NCBI GenBank assembly: GCA_037143175.1
Contig: JBAWZF010000011.1
Coordinates: forward strand, 3,747 to 67,746
Origin: a bacterium
GTDB lineage: Bacteria > Verrucomicrobiota > Kiritimatiellia > CAIKKV01 > CAITUY01
Length of the DNA: 64,000 nucleotides
Direction of reading: 5' to 3'
Every line of letters begins with the position of its first letter. Within the stretch, counting starts at the first letter, position 1. Under the pieces are notes generated by a model. That model was not told the DNA's origin and did not search any database. It saw only the letters and a list, made by a program, of their open reading frames with translations. This document shows positions 9,883-35,649 of this stretch, one piece after another. The position numbers and the translations under genes are program-made.

Positions 9883-10644
9883 TTATCCAATCATTCCTGC
9901 TATTGTTTTCAGGAGATCGGCGGGGTTACTTGATGGAACAAACCGGTCGACATTAATGAATTTATTGCCTTGTTGATAGACGCCGGTGCCGTCAAATAAA
10001 ATGATGGGAATTCCCTTGGCATCTGGAAAATCGATGAGGGCGGCGGCGATGGTGCTGCCGGTGGTCCCACTGAGAATGGCCTTGATCAGGATTATGGAGG
10101 GGGCGCGTGATGTGATGGTTTCCGCCAGAAACCGGCTGTCCAGAATGGCAACCGCGTTGTACCCTGCAGCAATAAAAGAGGTCTCCATTCGCTTGCTCAA
10201 TAATGGGTTGTCTTCCAGAATGATGATCGACTTTTTCTTTCCCGGTTCCGCGTGGGTGCTGGGGGAAAGCGTTTTTTTGGTTTTCTGGAGAATTCGCTTG
10301 ACTTCAGATATTAAGAGAGAGGGATCGCTGGTTTTGGATAGGAACCCCTCCACGCCCATGGTACTGAAGAAGGGTTCCATGTTGGCGCGCGCGGTAAACA
10401 CCAATATCGGGTAACGGGGTTTCCCGTCAGGGTCTGATAATTTTTTAAGTAGAGTCAGTCCAGACATGCCCGGCATACTGATATCCAGAATGATGAGATC
10501 GGGCGGCCTCTGGCGCAAAATTTGCAGGGCTTCATCACCTGTGGTGGCGCCCATCACTTCATAACCCTCCATGCGTAACTGATCGCCAACAGTGAGCTGC
10601 AGGCTGGGTTCGTCATCAATTAAAAGAATACGCTCGGTGTTCAT
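9883..10644 (-). CDS. response regulator with two receiver-like domains and no DNA-binding output
   Basis: N-terminal REC domain (ILLIDDEPSLQ...DLIILDISMPGMSG). A second, degenerate REC-like domain is C-terminal. 4-bp overlap with the upstream kinase. Confidence 0.75.
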   Translation of the reverse strand: MNTERILLIDDEPSLQLTVGDQLRMEGYEVMGATTGDEALQILRQRPPDLIILDISMPGMSGLTLLKKLSDPDGKPRYPILVFTARANMEPFFSTMGVEGFLSKTSDPSLLISEVKRILQKTKKTLSPSTHAEPGKKKSIIILEDNPLLSKRMETSFIAAGYNAVAILDSRFLAETITSRAPSIILIKAILSGTTGSTIAAALIDFPDAKGIPIILFDGTGVYQQGNKFINVDRFVPSSNPADLLKTIAGMIG

Positions 10645-12284
10645 CGATGGGGCTCCTTAATTTGAGGTGCTTGGAAAGCTGTCAGGCCCAGAAGGGCGGT
10701 TTCAATGGTATCCATTAACTCTCCGATTTTCCAGGGTTTAGCTACGGTTGGAATTGTGAAACGAGCCAGAATATCGGTGGTGGCCTCATCAAGAGTGGCA
10801 CCGGTTACGGCGATGATCGGGGTGTAAGAGAGGGTGTGAGAGCTTTTTAGTGTCAAAATTACAGTTGTGCCGTGAATATCTTCTAAAATCAGGTCAAGCA
10901 AAACCAGTGCAGGTCGATGTGCTTCTGCCATGAGGATGGCCTCTTGGCCGCTTTCGGCGGAAATGATCCGATAACCTTGATTGGTGAGATGCTGCTTTAA
11001 AAGCGCCAGGATTGCCGCATCATTGTCAACGATGAGTATAACTGGAGGTTCGGCGAGAGGGAGGCTGATGGATATGGCCGCGCCATGGGTTAGTCCCTCG
11101 GGGGGGCTCATCATCGTAAGTTTACCGCCATGGAGCAGAACGATATCTTTTGAAATGGCAAGGCCCAGCCCAGATCCGGAGGCCTGATTATTGGCTTTGA
11201 AATAACGTTCAGTGATATGGGGCATGGCTTCGGGTGGAATTCCGAGGCCGCTATCTGTCACAGTGATCCTGGCAAAGCGTTCGATCTCGGGATCGGGCGA
11301 CAATTCCACGCGAATCGTGCCGCCTCTAGGGGTAAATTTAACGGCATTACCGAGAATATTATGAAGGACACGCTGGATCATACCGGCATCACAGCGGATA
11401 AAGAGGCAGCCGGGGTCAAATACCATTTTTATGGAGATTTGAGCGGTCTCGGTTTGAGGTCTGAAGGTCTCGATGCAGCGTAAAATCAAGTGCCTGGCGG
11501 GGGCTGTGATGGGCGATAGACTCAGAGTTTGGTTATCAAGTTTGCCTAGATCTAGAATGTCGTTGATGGTAGCGACGAGACGTTGGCATTCAGTATCGAA
11601 GAGCTTCAGGTAGCGGATGGCGTGATCAGGGAGAGGGCCAGCGAAACCTTTAAGCAGGTTCCGGACACCGTACATCATGGAGGTGATAGGGGTTCTGAGC
11701 TCATGTGAAACATTGGCAACGAATTCCGACTTGGCCTGACTGTTCTTTTCCAGATGAATGACGGCTGCGCGCAACTCGTTCTCAATTTGTTTACGTTCGG
11801 TAAAGTCATGGAAAATGGCCAGCAGGTACTTGGTGCCGCTCAGGAGGATGGGGCGTGCGCTAACGAGGCTGTTCCGGAGGTCTCCGGATTTTGATTTATG
11901 AACGGTTTCAAACGTTTCGGCCCCGTGGGCCAGAATCCGGCTGAGATGGGCGGTCAGCTGAGTGCGGCCCTCCTGAGCGTCGATATCGAATAGGGTCAGG
12001 TGGCTAAATTCCTCTGCCGTGTACCCGAGTTGGCGGCAAGCCTGACTGTTGAATTGCAGAAAAGCGGCTGAAACGGGGTCAATGAGAATGATGGCATCCA
12101 TGGCCTGTTCAAAAATGATCCGGTAACGCTCCTCTGCTTCGCGTAGTCGTTGATCAACCATTTCACGCTGGTCGATTTCCTTTTGCAGGGCAGACATGGC
12201 GTCTAAGAACTCTGCGGAATGGAGTTCTGAGGGGGGGGTGGAATTTTCACGAAGGGGTAGCACTTTATAATTCGCCTTATTCAC
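10641..12284 (-). CDS. PAS-domain hybrid sensor histidine kinase (HisKA, HATPase_c, C-terminal receiver)
   Basis: H-box VSHELRTPITSM, G-box GSGLGLAISKDIV, and a C-terminal REC domain (ILIVDNDAAIL...LVLLDLIL). Confidence 0.85.
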   Translation of the reverse strand: MNKANYKVLPLRENSTPPSELHSAEFLDAMSALQKEIDQREMVDQRLREAEERYRIIFEQAMDAIILIDPVSAAFLQFNSQACRQLGYTAEEFSHLTLFDIDAQEGRTQLTAHLSRILAHGAETFETVHKSKSGDLRNSLVSARPILLSGTKYLLAIFHDFTERKQIENELRAAVIHLEKNSQAKSEFVANVSHELRTPITSMMYGVRNLLKGFAGPLPDHAIRYLKLFDTECQRLVATINDILDLGKLDNQTLSLSPITAPARHLILRCIETFRPQTETAQISIKMVFDPGCLFIRCDAGMIQRVLHNILGNAVKFTPRGGTIRVELSPDPEIERFARITVTDSGLGIPPEAMPHITERYFKANNQASGSGLGLAISKDIVLLHGGKLTMMSPPEGLTHGAAISISLPLAEPPVILIVDNDAAILALLKQHLTNQGYRIISAESGQEAILMAEAHRPALVLLDLILEDIHGTTVILTLKSSHTLSYTPIIAVTGATLDEATTDILARFTIPTVAKPWKIGELMDTIETALLGLTAFQAPQIKEPHR

Positions 12285-12359: not shown

Positions 12360-12387
12360 TTGACGTTAATCCGATGAACTCTATACT
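12360..12387 (+). promoter_or_regulatory. putative sigma70-type promoter (TTGACG, 16 nt, TATACT)
   Basis: Consensus-like -35 and -10 hexamers with a 16-nt spacer, about 45 bp upstream of the ATG at 12436. Confidence 0.4.
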
Positions 12388-12435: not shown

Positions 12436-13044
12436 ATGATGAAATACGAATACGCGATTAAAAAAATGGCGGTATGTGTTGCGCTCATTCTGGCTTTTGG
12501 GACGGTAAACGGTCTGGCGCAGGGGCGGGTGCGTGAAGGGGGATCCATACTAAAAGTCCGCGAATTGACCGGTTATGGGCCCCGGGGCTTGGTTAAAAGT
12601 CCCGATTCAGGCTCCTCCAAGCGTGCTGGATCCCGTGAATGGGCGGAACTTAATGTCCAATTTGATACTGAGCCGGAGTGGGTGGACGAGGTCGTATTCA
12701 ATTTCTATGTTTTGTTGCGAGACCGGGGCGGATCGGATTATACCTTGCTTAAAGGCGTTGTGACTTATGTGGATGTGGAGCGTGGTCGTTCTCATCAAGG
12801 GGTAGCCTATGTCCGGCCGACAGCACTGGCGCGGTACGGTGAAATTGTGGGGGTAGCTGTCGAGGCTAGTGTGAAGGGCGAAGTGGTGAGCGTTTTGACA
12901 GAAGGTCGATTGGGGCCGAGCAAGCCGTTGCCTTTGGAATGGTGGAAAAACCCCAAATTAAGCCCCAAAGATGGGTATGTCGTGGATAAATCGAAGACCC
13001 CGTTTGCGTTGATCAATTTCGATAATTACGAGGCTCTCAAGTAG
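12436..13044 (+). CDS. secreted hypothetical protein; first gene of the T4P-like cluster (Amuc_1102-like position)
   Basis: Signal peptide (MAVCVALILAFGTVNGLAQG). No recognisable motif. Gene order matches the Akkermansia Amuc_1102 to Amuc_1098 locus as I recall it. Confidence 0.5.
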   Translation: MMKYEYAIKKMAVCVALILAFGTVNGLAQGRVREGGSILKVRELTGYGPRGLVKSPDSGSSKRAGSREWAELNVQFDTEPEWVDEVVFNFYVLLRDRGGSDYTLLKGVVTYVDVERGRSHQGVAYVRPTALARYGEIVGVAVEASVKGEVVSVLTEGRLGPSKPLPLEWWKNPKLSPKDGYVVDKSKTPFALINFDNYEALK

Positions 13045-13054
13045 GCAGCTCATT

Positions 13055-14782
13055 ATGTTCGGATCAGATCGTATTCTAGCATTGGACATTGGAAACAGCA
13101 AGATTGTGCTTGCTGAATTCAAGCTTGCGGGGGCGCAAAACCTCGAATTGGTTAATTATGCCGTGTCGCCTTTGGGGATTGATCCGGAGAGTACGTCGGA
13201 TGTTTCGGCCTATATCGTTTCGGGTATTCGTGATGCGATGCGGGCGAGTAACATCCGTCCCGGACCGGTTAGTGTTTCGGTATCAGGGCAGATGGTATTC
13301 CCGCGTTATGTGAAATTGCCGCCGGTGACTCCAGATAAAATTTCGCAGATTGTGAAATATGAGGCGCAGCAAAACGTCCCGTTTCCCATTGATGAAGTAG
13401 TCTGGGACTACCAGTTGGTGGGGCAGGATACCGGCGAGCTGAGCGTTCTGTTGGTGGCGGTGAAGGGGGATTTCGTTAAGAATATCACCGATTGTGTTGA
13501 GGCTGCGGGGCTCGAACCGATGTTGGTGGATGTGTCTCCGCTCGCGCTTTATAATACCGTGCGCTATAATTACGCCGATTTGCCGGGTTGTACTATGATT
13601 CTGGACATGGGGGCGCGCTCCACGAATGTGGTGTTTGTTGAAGGAACAAAAATCTTCAGTCGAAGTATTCCGGTGGCGGGTATGGCGATCACCCGTGATG
13701 TGATGAAGGAATTTGAGCTGTCGTTTGAAGAGGCTGAGCAGCTCAAGATTGCGCATGCTTTTGTTGGATTTGGTGGCGTATACGAGGGGCATGAGGTCGG
13801 GGTCTCCGATCGCACTTCCAAGATCGCGCGTAATATTATGACGCGGTTACATGCTGAAGTCATTCGAACGATCAATTTTTATCGTAGCCAGCAGGGCGGG
13901 GCGCAGCCTGAAATGGTGCTGTTGACCGGGGGCTGTTCGGTGATCCCTCAGGCCAATGTGTTCCTGAAAGAAAAGCTTAAAATTGAGGTGGATTTTCTCA
14001 ATCCGTTCCGCAATGTAGCGGTGAGTTCAAATATTTCGTCCGACAAAGTGGGCGAAAATCTACACTTGTTGGGGGAAGTGGTCGGTTTGGCGCTGCGGCG
14101 CACTTTATCTTGCCCTGTGGAGATCAATCTTCTGCCGCATGAGTTGGCTGCCCGACGCGTGTTGCAACGTCGCATGCCGTTTTTCGGGTTGGCCTCAGTC
14201 GGCTTGGTGTTTATTGTACTTGTGTTTGGCATGTTTCTTCATCAGATGAAGTCTATGGCGCAAGACCGGTTGATTAAGGTGCAGTCCCGTATTGATGATT
14301 TATCCACTCCTAACGCAACCTTGGGGCAATTGGCAAAGCAGAAATCTCAGTTATATGCCCAGGCTGCAGACTTAAGCACTTTGCTTGAAGGCCGGGTACA
14401 ATGGTTGACGATTCTGGACGACTTGCATCAGCGTTTGGCTCCGGGAATGTGGTTGACTTCAGTGCGGGTTTTGCCAGCAAAGGATGAAAAGGCGCCTTCG
14501 AGATTTGAAATCAAGGGCATGGCGTTTACGGATGAGGTTAACAATCAGGCAATTACTGAATATGTGGCGAAGCTGAAGGGAGTCGGGTACTTTGCGGATG
14601 ATCTTCAGATCAAGCGTATTAAGCCAGTGGAAAGTACTGATTATGCCACTGAATTTACTGTGGAGCTCGGGCTGAACAAGACTCCTGTTCCTGCTGTCAA
14701 GGTGGTACAACCGATGCTTGAGGCGAAAGCCGGCGTTAGTGAGGATAAAGGCGGCAAAACCAGCGGCAAGGGGAACCCGTAA
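13055..14782 (+). CDS. type IV pilus assembly protein PilM fused to a PilN-like membrane/coiled-coil domain (Amuc_1101/FtsA-like)
   Basis: N-terminal actin-like PilM fold (ILALDIGNSKIVLAEF..., LVDVSPLALYN), one TM helix near aa 375 (FFGLASVGLVFIVLVFGMFL), then a PilN-like periplasmic region. Confidence 0.75.
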   Translation: MFGSDRILALDIGNSKIVLAEFKLAGAQNLELVNYAVSPLGIDPESTSDVSAYIVSGIRDAMRASNIRPGPVSVSVSGQMVFPRYVKLPPVTPDKISQIVKYEAQQNVPFPIDEVVWDYQLVGQDTGELSVLLVAVKGDFVKNITDCVEAAGLEPMLVDVSPLALYNTVRYNYADLPGCTMILDMGARSTNVVFVEGTKIFSRSIPVAGMAITRDVMKEFELSFEEAEQLKIAHAFVGFGGVYEGHEVGVSDRTSKIARNIMTRLHAEVIRTINFYRSQQGGAQPEMVLLTGGCSVIPQANVFLKEKLKIEVDFLNPFRNVAVSSNISSDKVGENLHLLGEVVGLALRRTLSCPVEINLLPHELAARRVLQRRMPFFGLASVGLVFIVLVFGMFLHQMKSMAQDRLIKVQSRIDDLSTPNATLGQLAKQKSQLYAQAADLSTLLEGRVQWLTILDDLHQRLAPGMWLTSVRVLPAKDEKAPSRFEIKGMAFTDEVNNQAITEYVAKLKGVGYFADDLQIKRIKPVESTDYATEFTVELGLNKTPVPAVKVVQPMLEAKAGVSEDKGGKTSGKGNP

Positions 14783-14785
14783 CCT

Positions 14786-15781
14786 ATGCAGTCCCGGCGT
14801 AAACTTTTGATCATCATTGTGGCGAGTATATTGGTTCTGCTTTTGGCGGGAGCAGCGACGCTTCTGGTGCGGGGGTTTCTGCAATTGCAAGAGGTGGATG
14901 CCAGCCTGCAAACTGCAAGCGAAACCTTGACTTCACTGTACGCGCAAAATCCATTCCCCTCTGGTGGTAATCTTCGGCTTGAGCGTGAGAATATTAAGAG
15001 TATTGGAGAGGAATTGCTTGGATTACAGTTGGCGATGAGCGAGGGGCAGGTGGAGCCGATTGCGCAAAGTCCCGCCAAATGTATCACTCAATTCTGGGAG
15101 ACGCGGAACTCACTTCTAGCTCGAGCCGGAGGTACCGTGAAAATTGATAAAGGGTTTGATTTTGGATTTGGACGACACATGAAGGGGGATTTGCCATCGA
15201 TTCAAGATGTGCCCAGGATTGCCCAACAATTGAAGATTGTCGAAACCTTGTGCAGTATTTTGTACGCTTCGAAAATTACGGCGTTGACCTGGATTTCCCG
15301 ACAAGAATTTGAGTCGGATGCCGCACTTGCTGCATTGCCTGGTAAACCTGCCAGCGGTACCACGGCTGCAAAAGCGGGGGCTGATATTGTGGTTAAAAAT
15401 GTGGCTGATGCGACAGCCGGTTTGATTCCTGCCGGGCAACTGTATGGCCGTTGGCATTTCATTGTCCAGTTTACTGCGCGCGAAGGGGCGCTGATGAAAG
15501 TTTTAAACGGGATGTCGCGCAGTCCTGTGTTTATTATTGTGACCCGTATGGAGATCAAAGGTGACGATAAGGTGTTTGATCGAAAAGAGGCGGAAGCGGT
15601 AGCGGCCAAGTCGGCCGAACGCAATGAAGACGCTGGCGCCAAGGAGGCGGTAAAACCTAGAGATGCACGAGTTGTTTGTGGTCGGGATGCCCTAGTCAAT
15701 GTAAAGCTTGAGTTGGACGTATATCAGTTTGCAAAGCCGCAAACCAATGAGCCAGAAAAGAAGCTGGGGGGGGTAAAATGA
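14786..15781 (+). CDS. PilO-like membrane-anchored protein; likely Amuc_1100 homolog
   Basis: N-terminal TM anchor and a coiled-coil region. The C-terminus (FIVQFTAREGALMKVLNGM...VNVKLELDVYQFAKPQTNEPEKK) resembles the Amuc_1100 C-terminus as I recall it. Confidence 0.55.
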   Translation: MQSRRKLLIIIVASILVLLLAGAATLLVRGFLQLQEVDASLQTASETLTSLYAQNPFPSGGNLRLERENIKSIGEELLGLQLAMSEGQVEPIAQSPAKCITQFWETRNSLLARAGGTVKIDKGFDFGFGRHMKGDLPSIQDVPRIAQQLKIVETLCSILYASKITALTWISRQEFESDAALAALPGKPASGTTAAKAGADIVVKNVADATAGLIPAGQLYGRWHFIVQFTAREGALMKVLNGMSRSPVFIIVTRMEIKGDDKVFDRKEAEAVAAKSAERNEDAGAKEAVKPRDARVVCGRDALVNVKLELDVYQFAKPQTNEPEKKLGGVK

Positions 15782-16809
15782 CGGTCACCAGCATAAATTC
15801 TTTTTTTCAGAAAAATTATGACAGGCTTATAGCTGCGGTCGTGCTTATGGCGTTGCTGGCCTCGCTGGTTTTCCTTGCTGTTCAGGCCAAAGTTCAAAAA
15901 ACTGGGCAACAGGAGTTTGATAGCAAACTTGCAGGTTTGACTCCGAAATTTGCAAAGGCTGCCCCTGCGGACAAAACTATTTTCCGGGATGCATTAACGG
16001 CCATTGCAAACCCATTCCAGGCTGAAGAGTGGATGCAGGATCTTTTGTTAACCCCTGAGCTGAGGGTTCGCTGTGTGGTGTGTGAACGGCCCATCCCCTA
16101 TGCTGCGACAAACTGTACGTTTAAGGCTTGCGGCGTTGAGCAACCTACTGAAAAAGTCCACTTGGATGATTCAAATAGTAATAGGATCCCTGATGAGTGG
16201 GAAAAGAAATATTCGTTCTTTTCCATGACTTCCGACGAAATGACAGTTGATCATGATAATGACGGTTTTACATCCAGAGAGGAATACGACTGGAAAACGG
16301 ATCCACGGGATACGGGAAGCCATCCGCCGTACCTGGCAAAAGTCAGAGTTTCCGGGATTAAACCGATTCCATTCAGGATGATATTTAAGGCGGTAAACCG
16401 TGCGGGTGGAAAGCTGATCTTTCAGATTAATTTGCAGGCAAACGGGAGATCGTTCTACAAGAGTTTAGGGGAAGATGCGGAAGGCTTTAAATTGGCCTCC
16501 TATGATGAGAAGGCTGCGGACGGCCCTACTCTGACGCTGGAGCGTAATGGAAAGCAAATTCCCTTAATTAAAGGGCATCAAGTGCCGCGTGATGATTATG
16601 AGATTTCGTTAGTCTCGCTCTTGGATGAATCGGTTTTTGTTGTGCGGCCGGATGTGGATTTCGAATTTAAGGGAGACCGGTACAGGGTTAAAAAAGTTGA
16701 CACACAAGGGAGTCGTGTACTAATAAGCGACCCTTTACGGAATGTGGATGTTTGGATTGAGCGGCAGGCGCCTAGCGTAGATCAACCAGCGGCAACCCCC
16801 ATTAGATAA
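15778..16809 (+). CDS. membrane-anchored hypothetical protein with a Cys4 zinc-ribbon-like motif (PilP position)
   Basis: N-terminal TM helix, CVVCERPIPYAATNCTFKAC, and an acidic DHDNDGFTSREEYDW calcium-binding-like motif. 4-bp overlap with the upstream gene. Confidence 0.5.
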   Translation: MTVTSINSFFQKNYDRLIAAVVLMALLASLVFLAVQAKVQKTGQQEFDSKLAGLTPKFAKAAPADKTIFRDALTAIANPFQAEEWMQDLLLTPELRVRCVVCERPIPYAATNCTFKACGVEQPTEKVHLDDSNSNRIPDEWEKKYSFFSMTSDEMTVDHDNDGFTSREEYDWKTDPRDTGSHPPYLAKVRVSGIKPIPFRMIFKAVNRAGGKLIFQINLQANGRSFYKSLGEDAEGFKLASYDEKAADGPTLTLERNGKQIPLIKGHQVPRDDYEISLVSLLDESVFVVRPDVDFEFKGDRYRVKKVDTQGSRVLISDPLRNVDVWIERQAPSVDQPAATPIR

Positions 16810-16853
16810 TAAAGCCGCAAGGCTGTGACTAAAGAATGTAAGGAGAACGATTT

Positions 16854-19712
16854 ATGAGATTACAACACATACTCCGTTACGGCTCGTTTTTACTGGTCGG
16901 AGCAGTTACCGTTTTCGCAGCTTATTCCCAGGCCGCAGACGCCGTTATCGAAGAGCTTAAACCCGAAGTTATTGCTGTTGCGGGGACTAATGTGCCTGGC
17001 ACAGCAAAACCTGCTGCCGTTGTTCCTGTGATCGAGGAATTGGCTCCTGTGATTGTTCCTGTTGAGAAGCCGGTTGTGGTTATTGAAGAACCTGCGGCTC
17101 CTGTAGCCGCACCCGTGGAAGCGGTGCCTGTGGCTGAACCTGCGAAAGTGGCGGCTCCCGGGATCGAAGAATTGGCTCCAGTACCAGCGGTTGTTCCTAT
17201 TGAAAAACCGGCTGCAGTTATTGAGGAGTTGGCGGCCCCTGTTTCTGTTAAGGCGCCTCAGGTCGCTGCTGCGCCGGACGCCGCGACAAAACAAGCTTTG
17301 GAATCAGCGATGAAGGGTGCTAGTGATGAAGAGCGTCTCAAAGTCTCGACGGCTGTTTCTCAACAAGAGGAAGTCCGGCGTAAATCCCGCGAAATTGACG
17401 GACGTAAGGCGATGGAGTTGGCTGATGAGTCGTGGAAAATGAATGACTATTCTTCGGCGGCCGAATCCTACAAACTAGCCCTCAGCAAGCTGCCGTTAGT
17501 TGAGCGTTGCATGGGTCTGCGTATTCGAGCCAACGAACGCCTGCCGGAGTGTGAGTATGAAATTGTTCGTACCATGGTCAAGGAAGGCCGGGATAAGGAG
17601 GCGAAAAATAAAGGTGAGGAATTCTTAAAAGTACGCCCGAATAATATACCTCTACGGAAATTGATGGCCAAGCTCACTGAAAAGAAGCCTGCACCAACTC
17701 CTGTTGATGATTCAAGTGCGAAGATAGTGCAAAATGATCCTGAAGTTGAAAAGCAGATGCGCTTGGGGCGTGAGGCGATGGCGGGGCGTGAATATTCTGA
17801 AGCGCGTCGCCGGTTTGAGTCTGTGCTCGGAGTGGAGCCTGATAACCGGGAGGCTATGCGGTATTTGAAGGTATTGGGCGACCGTGAGTACGGGAATAAA
17901 TCAGTTGAACGCGATGCAACGGCTAGAAAGATGACCGCAGATGTGCGTGACACTTGGAATTCGAAGTATAAGGTCATCAAGGGACGCCCGCAGGCTGCCT
18001 CTCCAACGAATACACAGTCTGTTTCGGTCATAGAAGAAAAGATGAAGAAAATCATCATCGATGAAGTGGAGTTTCGTCAGGCGAACATGCACGATGTGGT
18101 TGATTTTCTCAATAAACGTAGCCGTGACTGTGACAAGTCTGCCGTTGATGAATCTCAAAAGGGTGTCAACATCATTTTGAACCTCAATCCGGGAGGAACC
18201 TCCGTATCTGCTCCTGCAACTGTTCCCAAGGATGCTGCTGATCCTTTTGCCGCTGATGCAGTGAAAAGCGGCGGAGCTGCGGGTGTCCCTGAAGTAACTT
18301 TTTCGGCGAGGTATATCACTCTTTACAATGCTCTTAAAATTATTACCAGTGTTTCCGGATTGAAGTGGCGAGTCGATGGTGATGTGGTGATGATTATCCC
18401 GTTTGACTGGGATCCGGCCACTATCGAAATGCGCATGTATCCCGTGGAGCCTACCTTCATTGAGCGTGTCAAGCTGACAAGTAGCGGCATGCCGGCACCC
18501 ACCACGAAGGGGGGGCGTGAATTTGAGGCACTGAATGCCGGCGGAGGCGCCGAGGGGGTTGGCGATATAAGAACAAACTTTGAGCAAATGGGAATGAAGT
18601 TCCCGAAAGGTTCGTCCATTAATTATAACCCGGGAATCGGGAAAGTGATTGTGGCTAATACGGCTGACAATCTGCTCATATTTGAAAAGCTTCTGAGTGA
18701 GTTGAATGTGGTGCCCATGCAGGTTGAAATCGAAGCCAAGTTTGTGGAGGTCAACGAAACCGACTTATACGAAGCTGGCTTGGAATGGCTGCTGACGGAT
18801 AACTGGGAAATGTTGACGAAAAAGAACAGCAATCCATATGCGCCCATGTCTTCGAATCCGAGGATTCAGATGAATGCCAATAGCGCTGATGGCGGATTTA
18901 CAAAGGGGCTTAACTTTTTGGGAACTGATAGCGGTAAGACCGTACCTATGGCTGGGGGCAAAGGGACTCTTGGGGGTATTGCTTCCATTGCCGGGGTTTT
19001 GACGAACCCCGATCTTACGGCTATTCTTCATGCATTGGAGCAAAATGGCAATGCCGACTTGCTTTCTGCGCCCAAAGTGACGGCTCGGTCAGGCGAGGCC
19101 GCGTTAATTAAAGTTGTTACTGAGTATATCTATCCCACCACTTTTGAAGTGCAGGGCGGGCAGATTGGCACCAGCACAGGTACCGGCGCTAATAACGCTA
19201 ACGTCATTCAGGAGACTACGGTTGTTCCACAGGATTTTGCCACACGTGAAGTTGGCGTGATTTTGGAAGTGACGCCTGAGGTCAGTCAGGATGGGAATAT
19301 GATCAGCTTGACCATGAAGCCTAAGGTAGTGACGGATCCCATCTGGTATCAGTATGGCTCTACTGTTCGGCGTGCTGACGGTTCTCAGCAGACATTGAAC
19401 ATGCCGCAGCCGTTCTTTCAGGTTCGGGCGATTGAAACCAAGATTTCGATTTATGATGGCGCTACTGTAGCGATGGGTGGTTTGATTACCGAGTCTGTGG
19501 ATAAAGTGAATGACAAGATTCCCGTTCTCGGTGATATACCCTTTATTGGCGCTCTATTCCGGTCCAAGTCTGAAAAAAGCGTTAAGCGGAACTTATTGAT
19601 TTTCGTGACGGCTAAACTGGTTGATCCTGCCGGACATCTGATTCGAAACCAGCCGACAGATGTCGTTGAGGCAGCCCCCGCCAGTGCATTGGCGCCTGCT
19701 TCCACGCGTTAA
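16854..19712 (+). CDS. secretin (PilQ/GspD family) with a long Pro/Val/Glu-rich repetitive N-terminal extension
   Basis: C-terminal secretin motif ATVAMGGLITESVDKVNDKIPVLGDIPFIGALFRSKSEKSVKRNLLIFVTAKLV, a signal peptide, and tandem IEELAPV/EKPAAVIEE repeats. Confidence 0.85.
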   Translation: MRLQHILRYGSFLLVGAVTVFAAYSQAADAVIEELKPEVIAVAGTNVPGTAKPAAVVPVIEELAPVIVPVEKPVVVIEEPAAPVAAPVEAVPVAEPAKVAAPGIEELAPVPAVVPIEKPAAVIEELAAPVSVKAPQVAAAPDAATKQALESAMKGASDEERLKVSTAVSQQEEVRRKSREIDGRKAMELADESWKMNDYSSAAESYKLALSKLPLVERCMGLRIRANERLPECEYEIVRTMVKEGRDKEAKNKGEEFLKVRPNNIPLRKLMAKLTEKKPAPTPVDDSSAKIVQNDPEVEKQMRLGREAMAGREYSEARRRFESVLGVEPDNREAMRYLKVLGDREYGNKSVERDATARKMTADVRDTWNSKYKVIKGRPQAASPTNTQSVSVIEEKMKKIIIDEVEFRQANMHDVVDFLNKRSRDCDKSAVDESQKGVNIILNLNPGGTSVSAPATVPKDAADPFAADAVKSGGAAGVPEVTFSARYITLYNALKIITSVSGLKWRVDGDVVMIIPFDWDPATIEMRMYPVEPTFIERVKLTSSGMPAPTTKGGREFEALNAGGGAEGVGDIRTNFEQMGMKFPKGSSINYNPGIGKVIVANTADNLLIFEKLLSELNVVPMQVEIEAKFVEVNETDLYEAGLEWLLTDNWEMLTKKNSNPYAPMSSNPRIQMNANSADGGFTKGLNFLGTDSGKTVPMAGGKGTLGGIASIAGVLTNPDLTAILHALEQNGNADLLSAPKVTARSGEAALIKVVTEYIYPTTFEVQGGQIGTSTGTGANNANVIQETTVVPQDFATREVGVILEVTPEVSQDGNMISLTMKPKVVTDPIWYQYGSTVRRADGSQQTLNMPQPFFQVRAIETKISIYDGATVAMGGLITESVDKVNDKIPVLGDIPFIGALFRSKSEKSVKRNLLIFVTAKLVDPAGHLIRNQPTDVVEAAPASALAPASTR

Positions 19713-19714
19713 GG

Positions 19715-20590
19715 TTGCTTATGAGCAATAGACGGCTGTTGTTGATTGATGGGACGCAGCTGTTCTATCGTTCTTTTTTTGGTATCAAGGAACTAACGAC
19801 CCGAGACGGGACCCCTTCCAATGCCGTTTATGGTTTTGTAAGGGGGATTCATCAGTTGATCGAGGTTCGCTCACCCTCCCATTTGGTAGTCGCCTGGGAT
19901 GGGGGGATTCCCGCTGCCCGGCGTAATCTTCTGCCTGAGTATAAAGCGCAGCGTCCGCCTATGCCTGATGCTTTGCGTGTGCAGTATCCTGCCATTGTAG
20001 AGTTTCTTGAATGTGCGGGCATTCCGTTCATTCGCAGGGATCAGGAGGAGGCAGATGACATTCTGGCATCTCTGGCGCGATGGGCTGAACCAGAGGCCGA
20101 TGAAGTTATTGTGGCAACCTGTGATAAAGATCTTTATCAGATGGTGTCTGGAAAAACGGTAATGGTCGGGTGGGGTAAAGAGGATAAGCCCGCAGGTCGG
20201 GCTGAGGTATTTGAAAAGACAGGGGTATATCCGGAGCAGATCGTGGACTGGCTCGCATTAACCGGAGACACCGTGGATAATATTTCCGGGGTGGATAGTG
20301 TAGGCCCCAAGACCGCCGCCAAGCTGTTGGCCAGCTTTGGAACGGTAGCGAGCATTTTTCAGAACATCGATGCGGTAAAGCCCGATCGTATTCGTGAACG
20401 CTTGCTTGCTGGTCGGGCGACGGTTGAGCGGAATCTGGCACTCGTCAGGTTGAATGCGGTCATGGATTGCTCTCCGGGTTGGGCTGGCCTGATGGTGCGT
20501 TCAGAGAATCCTAATAAAATGCGGCCTTTTTATGCCCGTATGGAATTCCACTCTTTGATCAAGGGTTGTGATCAAGGTGAATTGTTTTAA
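19715..20590 (+). CDS. stand-alone 5'-3' exonuclease (FEN/Pol I N-terminal-domain family)
   Basis: LLLIDGTQLFYRSFFG, PSNAVYGFVRG, and a helix-hairpin-helix region GVDSVGPKTAAKLL. Starts 2 bp after the secretin stop. Confidence 0.8.
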   Translation: MLMSNRRLLLIDGTQLFYRSFFGIKELTTRDGTPSNAVYGFVRGIHQLIEVRSPSHLVVAWDGGIPAARRNLLPEYKAQRPPMPDALRVQYPAIVEFLECAGIPFIRRDQEEADDILASLARWAEPEADEVIVATCDKDLYQMVSGKTVMVGWGKEDKPAGRAEVFEKTGVYPEQIVDWLALTGDTVDNISGVDSVGPKTAAKLLASFGTVASIFQNIDAVKPDRIRERLLAGRATVERNLALVRLNAVMDCSPGWAGLMVRSENPNKMRPFYARMEFHSLIKGCDQGELF

Positions 20591-22488: not shown

Positions 22489-23474
22489 GTGGATATCGAT
22501 CACGGGGGGATTTATTGATGTCTGGCTGGCAGATGTATCGTCGCTTTTTACCTCGTGGATGGGGGCTCTGTCTTTTTGTTTGGTGGCACGCCTTGCCGGT
22601 GGTTGGGGGCGAGAGTCTGGATGAAATTCTGTACGGTTTGGAGACGAATGGAATTTTAGGAGACCGATCGGCCGCTGTTCTGGGTGGGCTTAAAGGCATT
22701 CTTCAGTCAATTGATTCCGAGGTGACCCTTTGCGCTACTAATCCTTCTGTAGCAGAAGCTGGCTTATCCTCATCTGTTGTGCAGGCGGTTGAATTGTGGC
22801 CAGAGAATCTAGCCTATCTCAAGGTATCCGGTTTGGAGACTGGCAGTGGTGATGAGATTTTAGCACATCTGAAATCATTGAGTGACCGAGGGGGTGTGCT
22901 GTTTGATTTGAGAGGAGGAGGAGGCCAGGATCTCAATTCGGTCTGTGTATTGGCTGGCTTGACGCGTAGTCAAAACGAGCCCCTGTTTGTCATCACCGAT
23001 AATCGCGGGGTTGCGCTGTCGACAAATTCAGTTGGCGGGGAATATTTCAAATTGCCGCTGCTGCTGGTTTTGATCGATGCCGCAACTTGCGGGGCCTCAG
23101 AGGCGCTGGTCTCAGTTTTAAAAGGAAGTCCCGGAGTGATGTTGGTGGGTTCTCCAACAAAAGGTGATCCTTATCTCAGGAATTGGTTTCCCTTGCCAGG
23201 GGGGAAGATCGTGAGGATTGCGACGCAGAAATGGCTTCCCGTCTCAGGTGGAATGTATCAGAAAATCGGGATCAGGCCGGATATTATGGTGGAGGCCGCT
23301 GCTGGGATTGGAGGCGCAGGCCTGTCACGCACAAATAGGTTTGCCCGAGCCTTGAGTCCCAAATCAGACGCCGACCAGGAGCTCATGATGCGTGTTGCGG
23401 GAGATGCCGCTCTGCAGCGGGCAACCGATATTCTTCTTGGTCTGCAGGCGGTGGGGGGGTATGGACAAGATTAA
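22485..23474 (+). CDS. S41-family (C-terminal processing) peptidase-like protein, short form
   Basis: LLLVLIDAATCGASEALVSVLKGSPGVMLVGSPTKGD resembles the S41 Ser/Lys catalytic region. N-terminal hydrophobic segment. No clear PDZ domain. Confidence 0.5.
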   Translation: MSGYRSRGDLLMSGWQMYRRFLPRGWGLCLFVWWHALPVVGGESLDEILYGLETNGILGDRSAAVLGGLKGILQSIDSEVTLCATNPSVAEAGLSSSVVQAVELWPENLAYLKVSGLETGSGDEILAHLKSLSDRGGVLFDLRGGGGQDLNSVCVLAGLTRSQNEPLFVITDNRGVALSTNSVGGEYFKLPLLLVLIDAATCGASEALVSVLKGSPGVMLVGSPTKGDPYLRNWFPLPGGKIVRIATQKWLPVSGGMYQKIGIRPDIMVEAAAGIGGAGLSRTNRFARALSPKSDADQELMMRVAGDAALQRATDILLGLQAVGGYGQD

Positions 23475-24525
23475 CCCTCCGATCATTACGATCAGATCCG
23501 GTCAGATCGATCATAAGGCCGTTCGCGCGGCCGTAGAAGCCCTACATACCGGGGCCTTGATCATTTTGCCGACCGAGACTGTTTACGGAGTTGCGGCTGA
23601 TCCTAGGGTGCCTGGGGCTGAGGACCGGATCTATGAGGCCAAAGGGCGCGAGCGTAGCAAGCCGCTGCCCATGATGGCAGCCTCGCTAAAAGCTGTTGAG
23701 GCTACGGGCGCTGAGTTATGTCCCGCGGCGAGGCGGCTAGCCTGCCGTTATTGGCCTGGCCCACTGACGCTGGTGGTGAACTGTGGTTCTCGGGTAGAAG
23801 GCTTTCGAGTACCCAATCATCCAGTCGCGCTGGCCATTTTGCAGGCGGTAGGTGGTTTATTGCGTGTGACCAGCGCCAATCAAAGCGGTGAGCCTTCTGC
23901 GCTCACTGCGGCATCTGCCTTACAGGCGTTAGGTCAGCATGTGGCACTCGTTCTGGATGCTGGTTCCGCCAGATTGGGTATGGAAAGTACGGTGGTGGAT
24001 GCGACGGGGGACACCTTGAAGATTCTCAGGCAGGGGGCACTACCAGCCAAGGCCATTCTGTCGCGACCAAAAGTGTGGCTGGTTTGTACGGGGAATACGT
24101 GTCGCAGTCCTATGGCCGAGTATTTATTGCGTCACTGGCTGGGGCCTGCGCCCCAATGGGAAGTGGCGTCAGCTGGCGTATCGGCACTGGATGGGCAGCG
24201 GGCAAGTGAGTGTGCGATTCAGGTCATGCAGGAAAAAAAGCTGGATTTGGCTTCGCATAGGAGCCGGAAACTGACTGAGGCCCTCATTGACGATGCAGAC
24301 CTCATTGTGGTAATGACGGAGGCGCATAAGCGGGCAATTTTGCATCGTTTTCCATGGCTTGACGACCGCGTGGTGCTATTGAATACGTTCAGTTCTGCAC
24401 ACCCCGGGGAAGATGTTCCTGATCCATTTGGAATGTCGCTGGCCGTCTATCGTGCAATTCGGGATGAGATTGATGCGGCAATGCCTGATTTGCTGTTGCA
24501 TTTACATGGGTTGTATCACAAGTGA
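23461..24525 (+). CDS. L-threonylcarbamoyladenylate synthase (Sua5/YrdC/YwlC) fused to a low-molecular-weight protein-tyrosine phosphatase
   Basis: YrdC domain ([14 protein letters not shown]). C-terminal LMW-PTP P-loop [19 protein letters not shown] plus a DP motif. Starts at 23392 and 23404 are also possible. Confidence 0.75.
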
Positions 24526-24543
24526 TCTAGAGTGGAACGGACG

Positions 24544-26239
24544 GGAAAGGGTTATGATGAAAATAGCGATTGGTGCGGATCATGGCGGTTTTGAACTTAA
24601 AGAGACGCTTAAGGCGGAGTTGAAAAAACACAGGATCGCTGTTGAGGATGTGGGGTGTTACAGCGTGGAAGCCGTGGATTATCCTGACTATGCCCGGGCT
24701 GTCGCCGTTATGGTTTCTGAAGGGCTTGTGGATCAGGGAATCCTGATTTGTCGAACGGGTCTGGGGATGAGCATGGCGGCCAACAAGTTTCCCCGTGTCA
24801 GGGCAGCGTTGTGTCTGAATCCCGAGATGGCGATTGCCGCGCGCACTCATAATGATGCTAACGTTCTCGTCTTCGGCAGCGATATGGAGACGCCTGCAGC
24901 AGCCATGGCGACATTAGATGCCTGGCTCAAGGCTGTATTTGCAGGCGAAGATCGGCATCAGCGACGTGTGGATAAGATTGGTTCCGCAAAAGGGGCGGCT
25001 TTGGAGGCGGCTTCCATCGCGGAGACGGATAGTGAGATCTACCTCGCAATCAAAAATGAAGAAGAGCGTGAGCTGAAAACGCTGGACTTGATTGCCTCTG
25101 AAAACTATGCCAGTCGCGCGGTTCGTGAAGCCCAGGGTTCGGTTATGACCAATAAGTATGCCGAAGGGTACCCCGGGAAGCGTTACTATAACGGTTGTGA
25201 GTTTGTGGATGTGGCCGAGCGGCTGGCGATTGAGCGGGCTAAGGCCTTGTTTGGCGCGGAACATGTCAACGTGCAGCCGCACTGTGGAAGTTCGGCTAAC
25301 ATGGCGGTATATTTTTCTGTTCTCCAGCCGGGCGATACCATTCTGGCTATGAGTCTTGCTCATGGAGGCCATCTGACTCACGGACATAAAATCAATTTCT
25401 CGGGACGGTTCTTCAACTTCATTCCGTATGGGGTCAGCCAGAAGACAGAAATGATTGATTATGATGAAATCGCGGAACTGGCGCTCAAGCATAAGCCCAA
25501 AATGGTGGTTGCAGGCGCCAGTGCCTATGCCCGTGTGCTCGATTTCAAGCGGCTTCGTGAAATCGCGGATAGCGTGGGGGCTATGCTCATGGTCGATATG
25601 GCGCATATCGCAGGCTTGATCGCAGCCGGAGTGCATCCTAGTCCGGTTCCGTATGCTGACTTTGTCACGACCACCACGCATAAAACGCTCCGGGGGCCCC
25701 GCAGTGGAATGGTGCTATGTAGGGCAAGTTACGCCGCCGGGATTGATAAACAGGTTTTTCCCGGTCTGCAGGGCGGTCCCTTGATGCACACCATTGCGGC
25801 CAAGGCGGTTTGCTTTAAAGAGGCGATGTCGCCGGAATTCAAACAATATCAAAAACAGGTCGTTAAGAATGCCAAGGCGTTGGCTGCGTATCTTGCCAAG
25901 CATGAGTTACGAATTGTGTCGGGAGGAACCGATAATCACCTGATGCTGGTCGATCTGACCTCCAGTGGCATTACGGGAAAAGACGCTTCGATCGCCCTCG
26001 AGAAGGCGGGTATGATTGTAAATAAAAATGCCATTCCGTTTGACGTTCGGCCTCCGGCTGTCACTTCGGGAATTCGCATTGGGACGCCCGCCATCACCAC
26101 GCGGGGTATGAAGGAACCTGAGATGGAACGACTGGGCGGCTGGATTGTGGATGCGATTAAACATCAGGCTGATGAAAGTGCCCTGGCGCGAATCAAGGCG
26201 GAGGTGGTGTCCACTGCGGTGACGTTTCCCGTCCCGTAA
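24544..26239 (+). CDS. glyA: ribose-5-phosphate isomerase B fused to serine hydroxymethyltransferase
   Basis: About 150 aa of RpiB ([16 protein letters not shown]...) run without a stop into a full GlyA ([45 protein letters not shown]). Confidence 0.8.
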
Positions 26240-32619: not shown

Positions 32620-32800
32620 ACCAGAAGCCGTGAAGTAAGTATGGAAGTTCGTGAAATTCGAACGCGGTCGCGCCGCTGTAACCGGATACGAAACCCTTAA
32701 ACCACTCCTGTCAAGGCAGGGGGAAGGTGGGTAGTAGGTCTGAAGCCGGAAGTCAGAAGACGTTTTACTTCATGCTCAATGGACAGGTAACAGGATTTGT
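32620..32800 (+). promoter_or_regulatory. cobalamin (AdoCbl) riboswitch
   Basis: GGAAGTTCGTGAAATTCGAACGCGGTCGCGCCGCTGTAACCGG parallels the E. coli btuB core GGGAAUCCAGUGCGAAUCUGG...GCGCAGCGGUAAGG. B12-box-like ACCACTCC...GGGAAGG. Sits upstream of a TonB-dependent receptor. Confidence 0.8.
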
Positions 32801-32900: not shown

Positions 32901-33009
32901 TGCGTTGAGAGACCGTGAGCAGCTGGCCGATGGAGGTGGATCAGGAATGGGGCGTAGGACTGGATCCGGCGCTCGGGATGCTGAAACGGGTGGATTGGGA
33001 GTCAACGAA

Positions 33010-34875
33010 ATGAAGAAAACAGTATGGATGGGGTTGGTCGTGGCGGGTGGGTTGAGTTGGAGCGAGGCGGCAATCACGAATGAGGTTCCTCTGCAAAGTG
33101 TGGTGGTTACGGCAACACGGGTTGAGCAATCACTTGCGACGGTGGGGAGCTCCGTGACAGTGGTCGATCAGGCGCAACTGGCGGAGCGCCAATGTCGCAC
33201 GGCGTATGACGCCTTGCGTGAAGTTCCCGGGCTGGATGTGGTGCAGTTGGGCGGTGCAGGCGGGACTATGTCGACTCTCATTCGAGGAGCGGCTTCTGAG
33301 CAGACGCTTGTCCTGGTGGATGGGGTCCCTGTTAATGACCCCGCTGGATTGGGGCGTGGCGCCGATCTTTCCCAGATGCCGGTGCAGAATGTCGAGCGCA
33401 TTGAAGTGTTGCGGGGGCCGCAAAGCACCCTCTACGGTGCCGATGCGATTGGCGGGGTGATCAATGTCATCACCAAAAAAGGTGCAGGGCCGGTCGGCGG
33501 CGAGGTGTCTGCCGAGGCGGGCTCCTTTAATACCTTCAATGAGACTGCTGCTGTTCGCGGCGGAACATCAAACTACAATTACTCTGTAGGGGTATCCCGT
33601 CAGGATTCGGACGGCATTTCGAGTGCTGCTGAGAAGAATGGCAATCCTGAGAAAGATGGCTATCACCGGACAGATCTTTCGAGCAAATTGGGGTGGACCC
33701 CGATGGATGAATTTGAGGCCCATGTGCTCGTGCGTTGGAACAAGGCCGACTACGACTACGATGACTTCATGAATGGCCGGCCCGTAGATGGTGACAACCA
33801 TGGTATTTCGGATCTGGTTTCGCTCTATGGGGAGGGGAAGGGGAAGTTGCTTGATGGGCAATGGCGACCGCGTGTGGGTGGGTCATGGGTCAGTCAGAGT
33901 CGTGAGGATACGTCGTCGGTCGGGAATTCTTCATTTGACAGTTTGCTGCAGAAGCTTGAATGGCAGAATGACATGTATTTGGGGAATGCCAATATTGTCA
34001 CGGCCGGTATTGAGGCCCAGCAGGAATCTGCAGAGTCAACCTATGAATCATTCGGATATGTGGATCAGTTTAATCGGAAAACAGCGAAGCATCGCAGTGC
34101 GTATGTGCAGGATATCCTTTCGGCCGGGCCGCTGACGACCACGGTGGGGGGACGGGTGGATAGTTATGATTCATTTGGAACTGAAAACACCTGGCGTGTG
34201 GCTCCGTCGTATGACATGGCGGCCACTGGAACCCGGTTCAAGGGGTCATACGGTACCGGTTTCAAGGCGCCATCCCTGTTTCAACTCTATTCATCCTATG
34301 GTAGCCCGGAATTAAATCCGGAGACCAGTAAGGGGTGGGATGCTGGCGTAGAGCAGGAAGTTGCCGGGGGCTTTCTCGTAGTGGGCGCCACTTATTTTGA
34401 AAATCAGTTTGATGACCTGATTGACTATGATTTTGTCACCATGAAATACGGGAACATCAATCAGGCTGAAACCCGCGGCGTCGAAACTTTTGTCACGGCG
34501 AAGCCGGTGAAAGAACTTTCGGTACGGGCGGCCTACACATATACTGATACGGAAAACAAAATTACCGGTGACCAGTTATTGCGGCGTCCTCGCAACAAGG
34601 TGTCTCTCGATACCACGTATGCGATTACTTCAAAGCTAAAAGGAACGGTCAGTGTCATTTATGTCGGCCAACGAACAGATGAGGACTTTGTGACCTATAT
34701 GCCTGCGACACTGGATGGGTACATGCTGGTGAACCTTTATGCCTCGTATGACGTTCGTAAGAATGTGACATTATTCGGTCGACTTGAAAATCTGTTTGAT
34801 GAGGAATATGAGCAGGCCATCGGCTATGGCACTCCGGGGCGCGCCGGATATGGGGGCGTCAAAGTGACGTTCTAA
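33010..34875 (+). CDS. btuB: TonB-dependent outer-membrane receptor, BtuB-like (vitamin B12 uptake)
   Basis: Signal peptide MKKTVWMGLVVAGG. TonB-box region VVVTATR. Plug and beta-barrel with a C-terminal aromatic residue (VKVTF). Preceded by the cobalamin riboswitch. Confidence 0.85.
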   Translation: MKKTVWMGLVVAGGLSWSEAAITNEVPLQSVVVTATRVEQSLATVGSSVTVVDQAQLAERQCRTAYDALREVPGLDVVQLGGAGGTMSTLIRGAASEQTLVLVDGVPVNDPAGLGRGADLSQMPVQNVERIEVLRGPQSTLYGADAIGGVINVITKKGAGPVGGEVSAEAGSFNTFNETAAVRGGTSNYNYSVGVSRQDSDGISSAAEKNGNPEKDGYHRTDLSSKLGWTPMDEFEAHVLVRWNKADYDYDDFMNGRPVDGDNHGISDLVSLYGEGKGKLLDGQWRPRVGGSWVSQSREDTSSVGNSSFDSLLQKLEWQNDMYLGNANIVTAGIEAQQESAESTYESFGYVDQFNRKTAKHRSAYVQDILSAGPLTTTVGGRVDSYDSFGTENTWRVAPSYDMAATGTRFKGSYGTGFKAPSLFQLYSSYGSPELNPETSKGWDAGVEQEVAGGFLVVGATYFENQFDDLIDYDFVTMKYGNINQAETRGVETFVTAKPVKELSVRAAYTYTDTENKITGDQLLRRPRNKVSLDTTYAITSKLKGTVSVIYVGQRTDEDFVTYMPATLDGYMLVNLYASYDVRKNVTLFGRLENLFDEEYEQAIGYGTPGRAGYGGVKVTF

Positions 34876-34884
34876 GCGGAACGA

Positions 34885-35649
34885 ATGGGGGACAGCATTC
34901 AGAATTCAGGAATGATGGGAAGAATCCTGTTGAGCCCGACCTTGCGTCGGGCTTTCCCCCTTTCTCTGCTTTTGCATGTATTGGCTGTGGCGATAGTTTT
35001 GATCGGCATCAAGTATTGGCCGGTGGCTCCAGTCAGGTCGGTTCCAGTCGGGATGGTATTGGATGTCACCGAGCCAATGCGACCACAGGTGACTGCCGAA
35101 GAGCTGCCTGGGTTGGGCCAGGTGCTGGCGGAGATACCGCCAGAATCACGGATTGTGCCTTCCCCTGCAGTGCCTGAAACCCTTGCGCCCATGATTCCTG
35201 AGCCAGCCATCAAAGCTCCTGACCAGGTGTCGTTGTGGGTGCCGGTGATGCCTGAGGTGAGCCCAGTTGCCGGGGGCTCGCAGATCATGCAACCACCTGC
35301 CGTTCATACGTCTGGCCCGGCGGCGGGCATGGGGGTGCAGTCACAGTCTGTTTCCGGCGAGGGGCAGATTAAAGGTGGGCGGCCTATCGCGCTTTCAGAG
35401 ATCGTGCCGCGTTATCCCTATGGGGCAAGGATGCGTGGCGAGGCAGGGCGGGTGACAGTACATGTGCGCGTAAGTGACAAAGGGGTGGTGGAATCTGTGG
35501 AGGTTGTGAATGGAAGCGGCCATCCGGCATTGGATGACTCGGCCGTCACGGCGACAAAGAAGGCTCGATTCAAGCCTGCTGAGCAGGATGGAAAGCTCGT
35601 TCCTTCCGATATGAATCTACAATTTGAATTCCGGCTTGAGGAGCGGTAA
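34885..35649 (+). CDS. tonB: energy transducer TonB
   Basis: N-terminal TM helix, Pro-rich spacer (PEPAIKAPD...), and C-terminal TonB domain (IVPRYPYGARMRGEAGRVTVHVRVSDKGVVESVEVVNGSGHPALDDSAV). Confidence 0.8.
   Translation: MGDSIQNSGMMGRILLSPTLRRAFPLSLLLHVLAVAIVLIGIKYWPVAPVRSVPVGMVLDVTEPMRPQVTAEELPGLGQVLAEIPPESRIVPSPAVPETLAPMIPEPAIKAPDQVSLWVPVMPEVSPVAGGSQIMQPPAVHTSGPAAGMGVQSQSVSGEGQIKGGRPIALSEIVPRYPYGARMRGEAGRVTVHVRVSDKGVVESVEVVNGSGHPALDDSAVTATKKARFKPAEQDGKLVPSDMNLQFEFRLEER

Follow-up and report, generated by a model that had tools for sequence, protein, structure and literature searches.

Results

Organization of the gene cluster

We analyzed a 64-kb stretch of contig JBAWZF010000011.1 (hereafter the window, meaning the whole stretch at its full length), in which six open reading frames (ORFs) at positions 12436-20590, all on the plus strand, comprise a five-gene cluster resembling the Amuc_1102 to Amuc_1098 locus of Akkermansia and a downstream exonuclease gene. 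The coordinates and lengths of all six ORFs given in an earlier note on this DNA could be reproduced. They encode an Amuc_1102-family protein (12436..13044, 202 amino acids), a PilM-PilN fusion of the Amuc_1101 family (13055..14782, 575 amino acids), an Amuc_1100-family PilO-like bitopic membrane protein with an N-terminal transmembrane (TM) helix, a coiled coil, and a ferredoxin-like core (14786..15781, 331 amino acids), an Amuc_1099-family PilP/GspC-like coupling protein (15778..16809, 343 amino acids), an outer-membrane secretin of the Amuc_1098 family (16854..19712, 952 amino acids), and a stand-alone 5'-3' exonuclease (19715..20590, 291 amino acids from a TTG start or 289 from the probable ATG at 19721). 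Pfam also upheld the domains that had been called earlier (PilM and a weak PilN, secretin, and exonuclease), and in its architecture the cluster is a pilMNOPQ operon headed by an extra gene.

The five junctions measured, in order, 10, 3, -4 (an ATGA overlap), 44, and 2 bp. Junctions of 2 to 4 bp had been proposed, which fits the values of 3 and 2 bp and does not fit those of 10, -4, and 44 bp. The 2-bp gap between secretin and exonuclease itself holds with the TTG start; gene callers on identical contigs placed the exonuclease start at ATG 19721, which gives 8 bp, and began the first gene at its second ATG (201 amino acids). A promoter-like site (TTGACG, a 16-nt spacer, and TATACT; 12360..12387, plus strand), which is a consensus match only (10 of 12 positions), lies about 50 bp 5' of the first gene, inside the 151-bp gap to a divergent histidine kinase gene. 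The promoter and terminator scan was unable to define an operon because site counts across the region were not clearly above those in shuffled sequence.

The divergent gene belongs to a pair at 9883-12284 (minus strand), encoding a hybrid histidine kinase with a PAS domain (547 amino acids) and a response regulator (253 amino acids), which is kept upstream only in the closest relatives, such as loci L005-L008 and L012-L017 of the genome scan described below, and is a candidate regulator of the cluster. A mobile or foreign island was considered and dropped: we found no sign of one, GC content and GC skew were unremarkable over the region, and the neighborhood is a housekeeping one.

Correspondence with the Akkermansia locus and distribution of the cluster

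For each of the five cluster proteins, the top NCBIfam match was the corresponding Amuc_1102, 1101, 1100, 1099, or 1098 family model (NF042424, NF045709, NF038287, NF042425, and NF042912, with cut-offs of 55, 650, 180, 50, and 750 bits, respectively), and the 1101-, 1100-, and 1098-like proteins scored below the equivalog cut-off. NCBI and Pfam already have names for the system, which is a member of a large, widespread family: identical proteins in NCBI are called "Amuc_1100 family pilus-like protein" and "Amuc_1099 family pilus-like system protein", and precomputed labels from a newer Pfam release include PF28028 (Amuc_1100) and PF28178 (Amuc_1102).

The Akkermansia locus was located with an Amuc_1100 sequence, used as a probe only, whose residues 31-317 were confirmed to be identical to PDB chains 6KNY, 6LAD, and 6LAF; it led to database protein P0086 (317 amino acids, 99% identical, 774 member sequences) and from there to loci L038 and L039. 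The Akkermansia order is Amuc_1102 (238 amino acids), 1101 (612), 1100 (317), 1099 (337), and 1098 (906, with tetratricopeptide repeats (TPR) and a secretin domain), followed by a coaE-rho ORF. The synteny comparison suggested in the earlier note gave a match in gene order, orientation, and sizes between the window and L038, predicted TM and signal-peptide segments stand at equivalent positions, and BLASTP was significant for four of the five protein pairs, with the 1100 pair as the exception; the resemblance first recognized from the sequence alone was thus confirmed. The description of the host as a related genome needs to be divided, given that the locus is homologous while close kinship to Akkermansia does not hold: NCBI taxonomy places Kiritimatiellia and Akkermansia in different phyla.

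A scan of species-representative genomes yielded 33 loci, none from Akkermansia, all from uncultured metagenome-assembled genomes (MAGs), mostly from lakes, and a few cut by contig ends. They are labeled Kiritimatiellia, Kiritimatiellaeota, Verrucomicrobiota, Planctomycetes-Verrucomicrobia-Chlamydiae (PVC) group, Lentisphaerae, or "bacterium". The arrangement is far beyond chance, since the five-gene order recurs in all 33 species-level loci (contig ends allowed for), down to about 28% identity of the Amuc_1100-like protein, as well as in Akkermansia. Placement of the host rests on the MAG labels of these relatives because the window contains no rRNA gene.

The Amuc_1100-like protein

The 331-amino-acid protein had been described as similar to Amuc_1100 at its C-terminus. 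Pairwise BLASTP against Amuc_1100, the check proposed at the time, was not significant (E 0.59 and 4.5), and neither single-sequence phmmer nor a 29-sequence profile (A1) reached Amuc_1100 in the PDB. The score against NF038287, the Amuc_1100 family model, was 63.5 bits, and the A1 profile against the single Amuc_1100 sequence gave a suggestive match only (23%, E 9e-4). An exhaustive profile search then retrieved 1,891 representatives (50% identity) at E <= 1e-3, including 420 at E <= 1e-30, and a deeper 51-sequence profile was built from its members. Aligned by hhalign with a 12-sequence Akkermansia profile, it gave a probability of 98.3% and an E-value of 2e-14, collinear over 289 columns, and paired the C-terminal motif DVYQFAKPQTNEPE of the window protein with NLVHFNQPKAQEPS of Amuc_1100. 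The C-terminal string that had drawn attention, VYQFAKPQTNEPEKK, was located at amino acids 312-326, and both profile comparisons placed it opposite the C-terminus of Amuc_1100, LVHFNQPKAQEPSED, in agreement with the likeness noted earlier.

An AlphaFold2 model of the protein (mean confidence, pLDDT, of 75, with the core mostly at 80-96) pointed the same way. In a Foldseek search of the PDB, the ten best matches were Amuc_1100 crystal structures (E about 4e-10, target TM-score 0.69-0.80), and PilO came next. The protein also matched the periplasmic domains of GspM and GspL. Similarity to both Amuc_1100 and PilO was therefore found, by profile and fold comparison and not by the pairwise search, and the link to Amuc_1100 is solid only because the deeper profile and the fold searches were added. 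Together, the profile alignment and the predicted structure support the view that the protein is an Amuc_1100 homolog with a PilO fold.

The other cluster proteins

The Amuc_1102-like protein encoded by the first gene scored 58.9 bits against NF042424, above the cut-off, and carries the precomputed PF28178 label in its 201-amino-acid form. BLASTP against Amuc_1102, also proposed earlier, was significant (24% identity over 221 amino acids, E 3e-8). A single-sequence phmmer search of the PDB with the 202-amino-acid protein gave no match, and a profile of its family built from the related loci matched only 7DSZ, the structure of Amuc_1102 (E 1.9e-14), a structure likened in the literature to an archaeal type IV pilin (PMC13174399). 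An ordinary Sec signal peptide, ending around A-x-A and followed by Q, is present in each of the 18 aligned homologs, and none of the 18 has a class III prepilin leader. The gene stands first in the operon in Akkermansia and in all 29 related loci that are not truncated ahead of it. We regard its product as a candidate fiber or surface subunit.

The PilM-PilN fusion begins with a cytoplasmic actin-like PilM domain (PF11104 PilM_2, amino acids 10-349, 151.3 bits against a cut-off of 27; TIGR01175, 154.2 bits against 133), directly followed by the canonical PilN docking motif EINLLP (amino acids 356-361), a TM helix (amino acids 373-398), and a periplasmic PilN-like part (PF05137, amino acids 453-538, a weak match of 20.4 bits that lies under the cut-off of 22.8). 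Its top family match was NF045709 Amuc_1101_fam (E 1.3e-149, 499.8 bits), and BLASTP against Amuc_1101 gave 31% over 460 amino acids (E 2e-75). Myxococcus PilM was the best match in the PDB (E 4e-39), with Thermus and Pseudomonas PilM also among the best solved relatives.

The Amuc_1099-like protein scored 69.7 bits against NF042425, above the cut-off, and shared 26% identity over 351 amino acids with Amuc_1099 (BLASTP, E 2e-20). It consists of a TM anchor, a four-cysteine module, a D-x-D-x-D-G loop, and a C-terminal beta region with a domain of the secretin-binding type, and its best fold match was the HR domain of GspC that binds GspD. The four cysteines of the zinc ribbon read in it earlier, C99, C102, C113, and C118 (amino acids 99-118, C-x2-C...C-x4-C), are invariant in 36 homologs. 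The loop (amino acids 158-169, D-x-D-x-D-G-F...E) is likewise invariant and looks like a calcium-binding site, and the precomputed Pfam annotation of some relatives includes PF18884. Canonical PilP and GspC have neither the module nor the loop.

The secretin comprises a signal peptide, a Pro/Val/Ala-rich spacer, a TPR region, N-domains, and the secretin domain (PF00263, amino acids 727-924, 124.1 bits, preceded by the TPR matches). It matched NF042912 Amuc_1098_fam (E 1.5e-130, 436.7 bits) and Amuc_1098 over its full length (BLASTP, 26% over 926 amino acids, E 1e-72), and its best PDB matches were the PilQ-family secretin 6W6M (E 3e-18) and then GspD. Against the PilQ model TIGR02515, the score was 126.8 bits, below the cut-off of 284. 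The protein had been called giant, which 952 amino acids do not justify beside the 906 of Amuc_1098. The spacer (amino acids 32-127, 16947-17234) holds five V/G-IEE(L/P) motifs, and Tandem Repeats Finder detected no DNA-level tandem repeat under this repetitive N-terminus.

The downstream exonuclease and its neighborhood

The exonuclease (PF02739, 154.6 bits; PF01367, 79.2 bits) most resembled the DNA polymerase I 5' nuclease domain, with the N-terminus of Taq polymerase as its best PDB match (E 1.2e-44) and NCBIfam PolI models at 235-255 bits, and we found no signal peptide, TM segment, or hydrophobic segment in it. In 26 of 29 informative loci, the gene follows the secretin immediately and in the same orientation. 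Some of these loci are distant, with an Amuc_1100-like protein of only about 30% identity, and the gene is also retained in the distant L031, L032, and L036, where purD and purE are no longer neighbors. It is absent from this position in the deep-branching loci L033, L035, and L037 and in Akkermansia. In L033 and L035, the secretin is directly followed by coaE, rho, tig, and clpP, as it is by coaE-rho in Akkermansia, and in L018, L020, and L022, the exonuclease stands between the secretin and a coaE/rho/tig block (Pfam-confirmed only in L018).

The cluster thus sits in an old housekeeping neighborhood to which the exonuclease was added in one branch. Conservation of the neighborhood does not imply shared function, because the unrelated coaE-rho genes adjoin the cluster over a wider range than the exonuclease does. 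The exonuclease gene starts 2-8 bp beyond the stop codon of the secretin, no terminator-like site separates the two, and co-transcription with the cluster is probable. Its product is most likely a cytoplasmic housekeeping nuclease of the replication and repair type and not a component of the pilus-like system. The short gap had been taken as a hint of a link to DNA uptake, an idea that we rejected on the synteny evidence and that also sits poorly with a nuclease of the DNA polymerase I type that has no signal peptide.

Several features of the flanking genes were also recorded. The coaE-rho-tig(-clpP) block stands beside the MUL2-type cluster (MUL2 being the name of the Akkermansia locus) from Akkermansia to MAGs labeled Lentisphaerales or Verrucomicrobia (L018, L033, L035), and coaE and rho of Akkermansia L038 were called as a single 673-aa ORF (14890-16911). 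A membrane protein of about 700 amino acids follows the exonuclease in L031 (17049-19181) and L032 (16663-18681), labeled Kiritimatiellaeota and Lentisphaerae, and that of L031 has a weak Pfam match to the Dpy19-like C-mannosyltransferase family.

Other genes in the window

GC skew was positive in all 2-kb bins of the window (1-64000; 0.07-0.24) and most real genes are on the plus strand, as would fit a position of the entire window on the leading strand of a single replichore. A 608-aa ORF (24413-26239, plus strand) joins a ribose-5-phosphate isomerase B domain (LacAB_rpiB) to a full serine hydroxymethyltransferase, and this fusion is also one gene, of 588 amino acids, on identical contigs. 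At 23392-24525 (plus strand), a single ORF carries a Sua5/YciO/YrdC domain and a low-molecular-weight phosphotyrosine phosphatase domain. A cobalamin riboswitch (32643-32761, plus strand, 72.9 bits) immediately precedes genes for a TonB-dependent receptor and a TonB protein (32905-35649, plus strand), with which it probably forms a B12 uptake unit. The window also contains a family-B DNA polymerase of 760 amino acids (44262-46544, plus strand) that has both an exonuclease and a polymerase domain and whose surroundings are otherwise those of an ordinary bacterial chromosome, a DUF711 gene followed by an exosortase of the EpsH family (55027-57272, plus strand), and a HipA-type kinase toxin (61423-62706, minus strand).

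Discussion

The Akkermansia locus, known as MUL2, has been described as a 'pili-like' locus (Ottman 2017, PMC5332112; PMC13174399). We consider it probable that the cluster in the window is its positional ortholog in a distantly related PVC bacterium, probably a freshwater member of the Kiritimatiellia, and that it encodes a MUL2-type envelope-spanning machine related to type IV pilus systems, which would act in glycan attachment or capture and not in DNA uptake, with the exonuclease standing outside the machine. Both loci have five genes in the same order and orientation, of similar sizes and with the same TM and signal-peptide topology, each window protein is homologous to its counterpart, and the TPR region precedes the secretin domain in both. 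The differences are an identity of only about 15-31%, three of five window proteins below the NCBIfam equivalog cut-offs, a lake PVC bacterium labeled Kiritimatiellia as the host in contrast to a member of the gut Verrucomicrobiales, an exonuclease followed by purD and purE downstream where Akkermansia has coaE-rho, and the divergent histidine kinase and response regulator found upstream only in the clade of the window.

The cytoplasmic PilM domain is fused to PilN, and by analogy with canonical type IVa pili and type II secretion systems, the periplasmic part of PilN would pair with the PilO-like Amuc_1100 homolog in an inner-membrane platform. From this platform, the Amuc_1099 homolog, which is TM-anchored and PilP/GspC-like, would reach to the N-domains of the secretin in the periplasm. 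The secretin would form the outer-membrane channel, and the Sec-exported Amuc_1102 homolog, encoded first, is likely the passenger or a surface or fiber subunit. The machine as a whole may serve attachment to or capture of complex polysaccharides, as suggested by the literature on Akkermansia and by the glycan-degrading genes of the window. In Akkermansia, products of the locus are abundant envelope proteins (PMC5332112), MUL genes are needed for uptake of mucin products (PMC12418764), and attachment to fucose-rich glycans has been proposed as the role of the locus across Akkermansiaceae (PMC13174399). The window encodes a GH30 and a GH4 glycoside hydrolase, a NanA-like lyase, an esterase, and sugar kinases, which fit a polysaccharide-foraging lifestyle. 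Glycan attachment or capture would be the most likely role.

Several points weigh against this interpretation. Our data speak to homology and architecture, and to function only by inference, and the glycan role is borrowed from an organism of another phylum and habitat. Functional equivalence to the Akkermansia proteins is not assured, because three of the five proteins score under the equivalog cut-offs. The 64 kb contain no energizing ATPase, platform protein, or prepilin peptidase for the machine, and the Sec leader of the Amuc_1102-like protein, in place of a prepilin leader, does not readily account for assembly into a fiber. Finally, an adjacency kept in 26 of 29 loci of this clade would on its own normally suggest a functional link between secretin and exonuclease.

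It is rather unlikely, in our view, that the genes instead represent the alignment subcomplex and secretin (PilMNOPQ) of a true type IVa pilus for adhesion or twitching, with prepilins, PilB/PilT, PilC, and PilD encoded elsewhere and the Amuc_1102-like protein as an accessory. As in Pseudomonas aeruginosa, Myxococcus xanthus, and Thermus, the order is M, N, O, P, Q: an actin-like PilM is followed by a PilN-like part that keeps the INLLP motif (here EINLLP) ahead of its TM helix, then by a protein of PilO-like fold, one with a PilP-type beta domain, and a secretin; PilM is closest to type IVa PilM of Myxococcus and Thermus, and the best-matching solved secretin belongs to the PilQ family. We detected no canonical pilin, PilB, PilT, PilC, or PilD among the Pfam-scanned ORFs of the window, which agrees with the earlier statement that the cluster lacks these parts as far as canonical prepilins and motors are concerned, and not if it is read as excluding a pilin of any kind. 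In model organisms such as Pseudomonas and Myxococcus, pilMNOPQ-type operons are separate from pilA and pilBCD and normally lack pilA, pilB, pilC, and pilT, so that this absence near the cluster, although a difference from the complete system and a point against a true pilus, is also what such an operon would show. The Amuc_1102-like gene, an extra Sec-exported component that heads the operon in every uncut locus and in Akkermansia, argues for a core part. PilM and PilN are one polypeptide here, the PilP equivalent is TM-anchored like GspC and carries the four-cysteine module and D-x-D-x-D-G loop, whereas canonical PilP is a lipoprotein, and the PilO-, PilP-, and PilQ-like proteins fall below or escape the canonical family models, with no Pfam PilO or PilP match for the cluster proteins and a PilQ score under its cut-off.

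Somewhat less likely again is a type II secretion-like exporter, in which platform and secretin would drive already folded cargo from the periplasm through the outer membrane, for example the Amuc_1102-like protein or enzymes that degrade glycans. The best fold match of the 1099-like protein to the GspC HR domain, the matches of the 1100-like protein to GspM and GspL periplasmic domains, and those of the secretin to GspD models recall such a system. However, PilM-type cytoplasmic proteins belong to type IVa pilus systems, while type II secretion uses the cytoplasmic domain of GspL together with GspE, no GspE, GspF, or pseudopilins were found in the window, and the secretin scored 158 bits against a GspD model with a cut-off of 351.

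We find it improbable, as a joint proposal, that the cluster is an ancient PVC module that operates without canonical prepilins or a PilB-type motor, assembling or exporting its Sec-delivered Amuc_1102-like subunit by means of the PilMN fusion, the PilO-like and PilP/GspC-like proteins, and the secretin alone, and that the secretin-exonuclease adjacency in Kiritimatiellia and Lentisphaerae moreover reflects real co-regulation or functional coupling and not simple persistence of an old gene order. A competence machine coupled to an exonuclease that processes incoming DNA is very improbable: the tight and widespread adjacency and the PilQ-family structure 6W6M, which we take to come from a competence pilus, speak for it, but the nuclease is of a cytoplasmic replication and repair type with no export signal, is missing from this position in Akkermansia and three other loci, and is surpassed in the range of its adjacency by unrelated housekeeping genes, and ComEA, ComEC, and DprA were not found in the window.

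The MUL2-type machine that we favor also suggests a part-by-part reading of the Akkermansia locus, with Amuc_1101 as a PilM-PilN fusion, Amuc_1100 as PilO-like, Amuc_1099 as PilP/GspC-like, and Amuc_1098 as the secretin. The likeness of the Amuc_1100 core to proteins of type IV pili and of type II secretion has already been published (PMC13119276, citing Wang et al., 2020), and for the assignment of Amuc_1100 and Amuc_1099 to PilO and PilP, our literature search returned only a general statement of similarity to such proteins. If the reading holds, proteins of the Amuc_1100 type would be expected to belong to the platform and to be anchored in the inner membrane, at odds with the common portrayal of Amuc_1100 as an outer-membrane protein. 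Mucin and glycan use, surface exposure, and signaling of Amuc_1100 through Toll-like receptor 2 (TLR2) have been reported only for Akkermansia (PMC5332112, PMC12418764, PMC13174399). Neither TLR2 immunomodulation nor a mucin role can be assumed for the window proteins, and the medical interest of Amuc_1100 does not carry over to a lake-bacterium homolog, because identity to it is only about 15-17%.

The published survey of MUL2 covers Verrucomicrobiales, Chthoniobacterales, and Methylacidiphilales only (PMC13174399). Our results extend the range of the locus modestly, well outside Verrucomicrobiales, to lake MAGs labeled Kiritimatiellia and Lentisphaerae, in which the coaE-rho neighborhood is still recognizable. 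This distribution supports the view that the MUL2 locus encodes an old, general envelope machine of PVC bacteria and is not an adaptation to the gut or to mucin.

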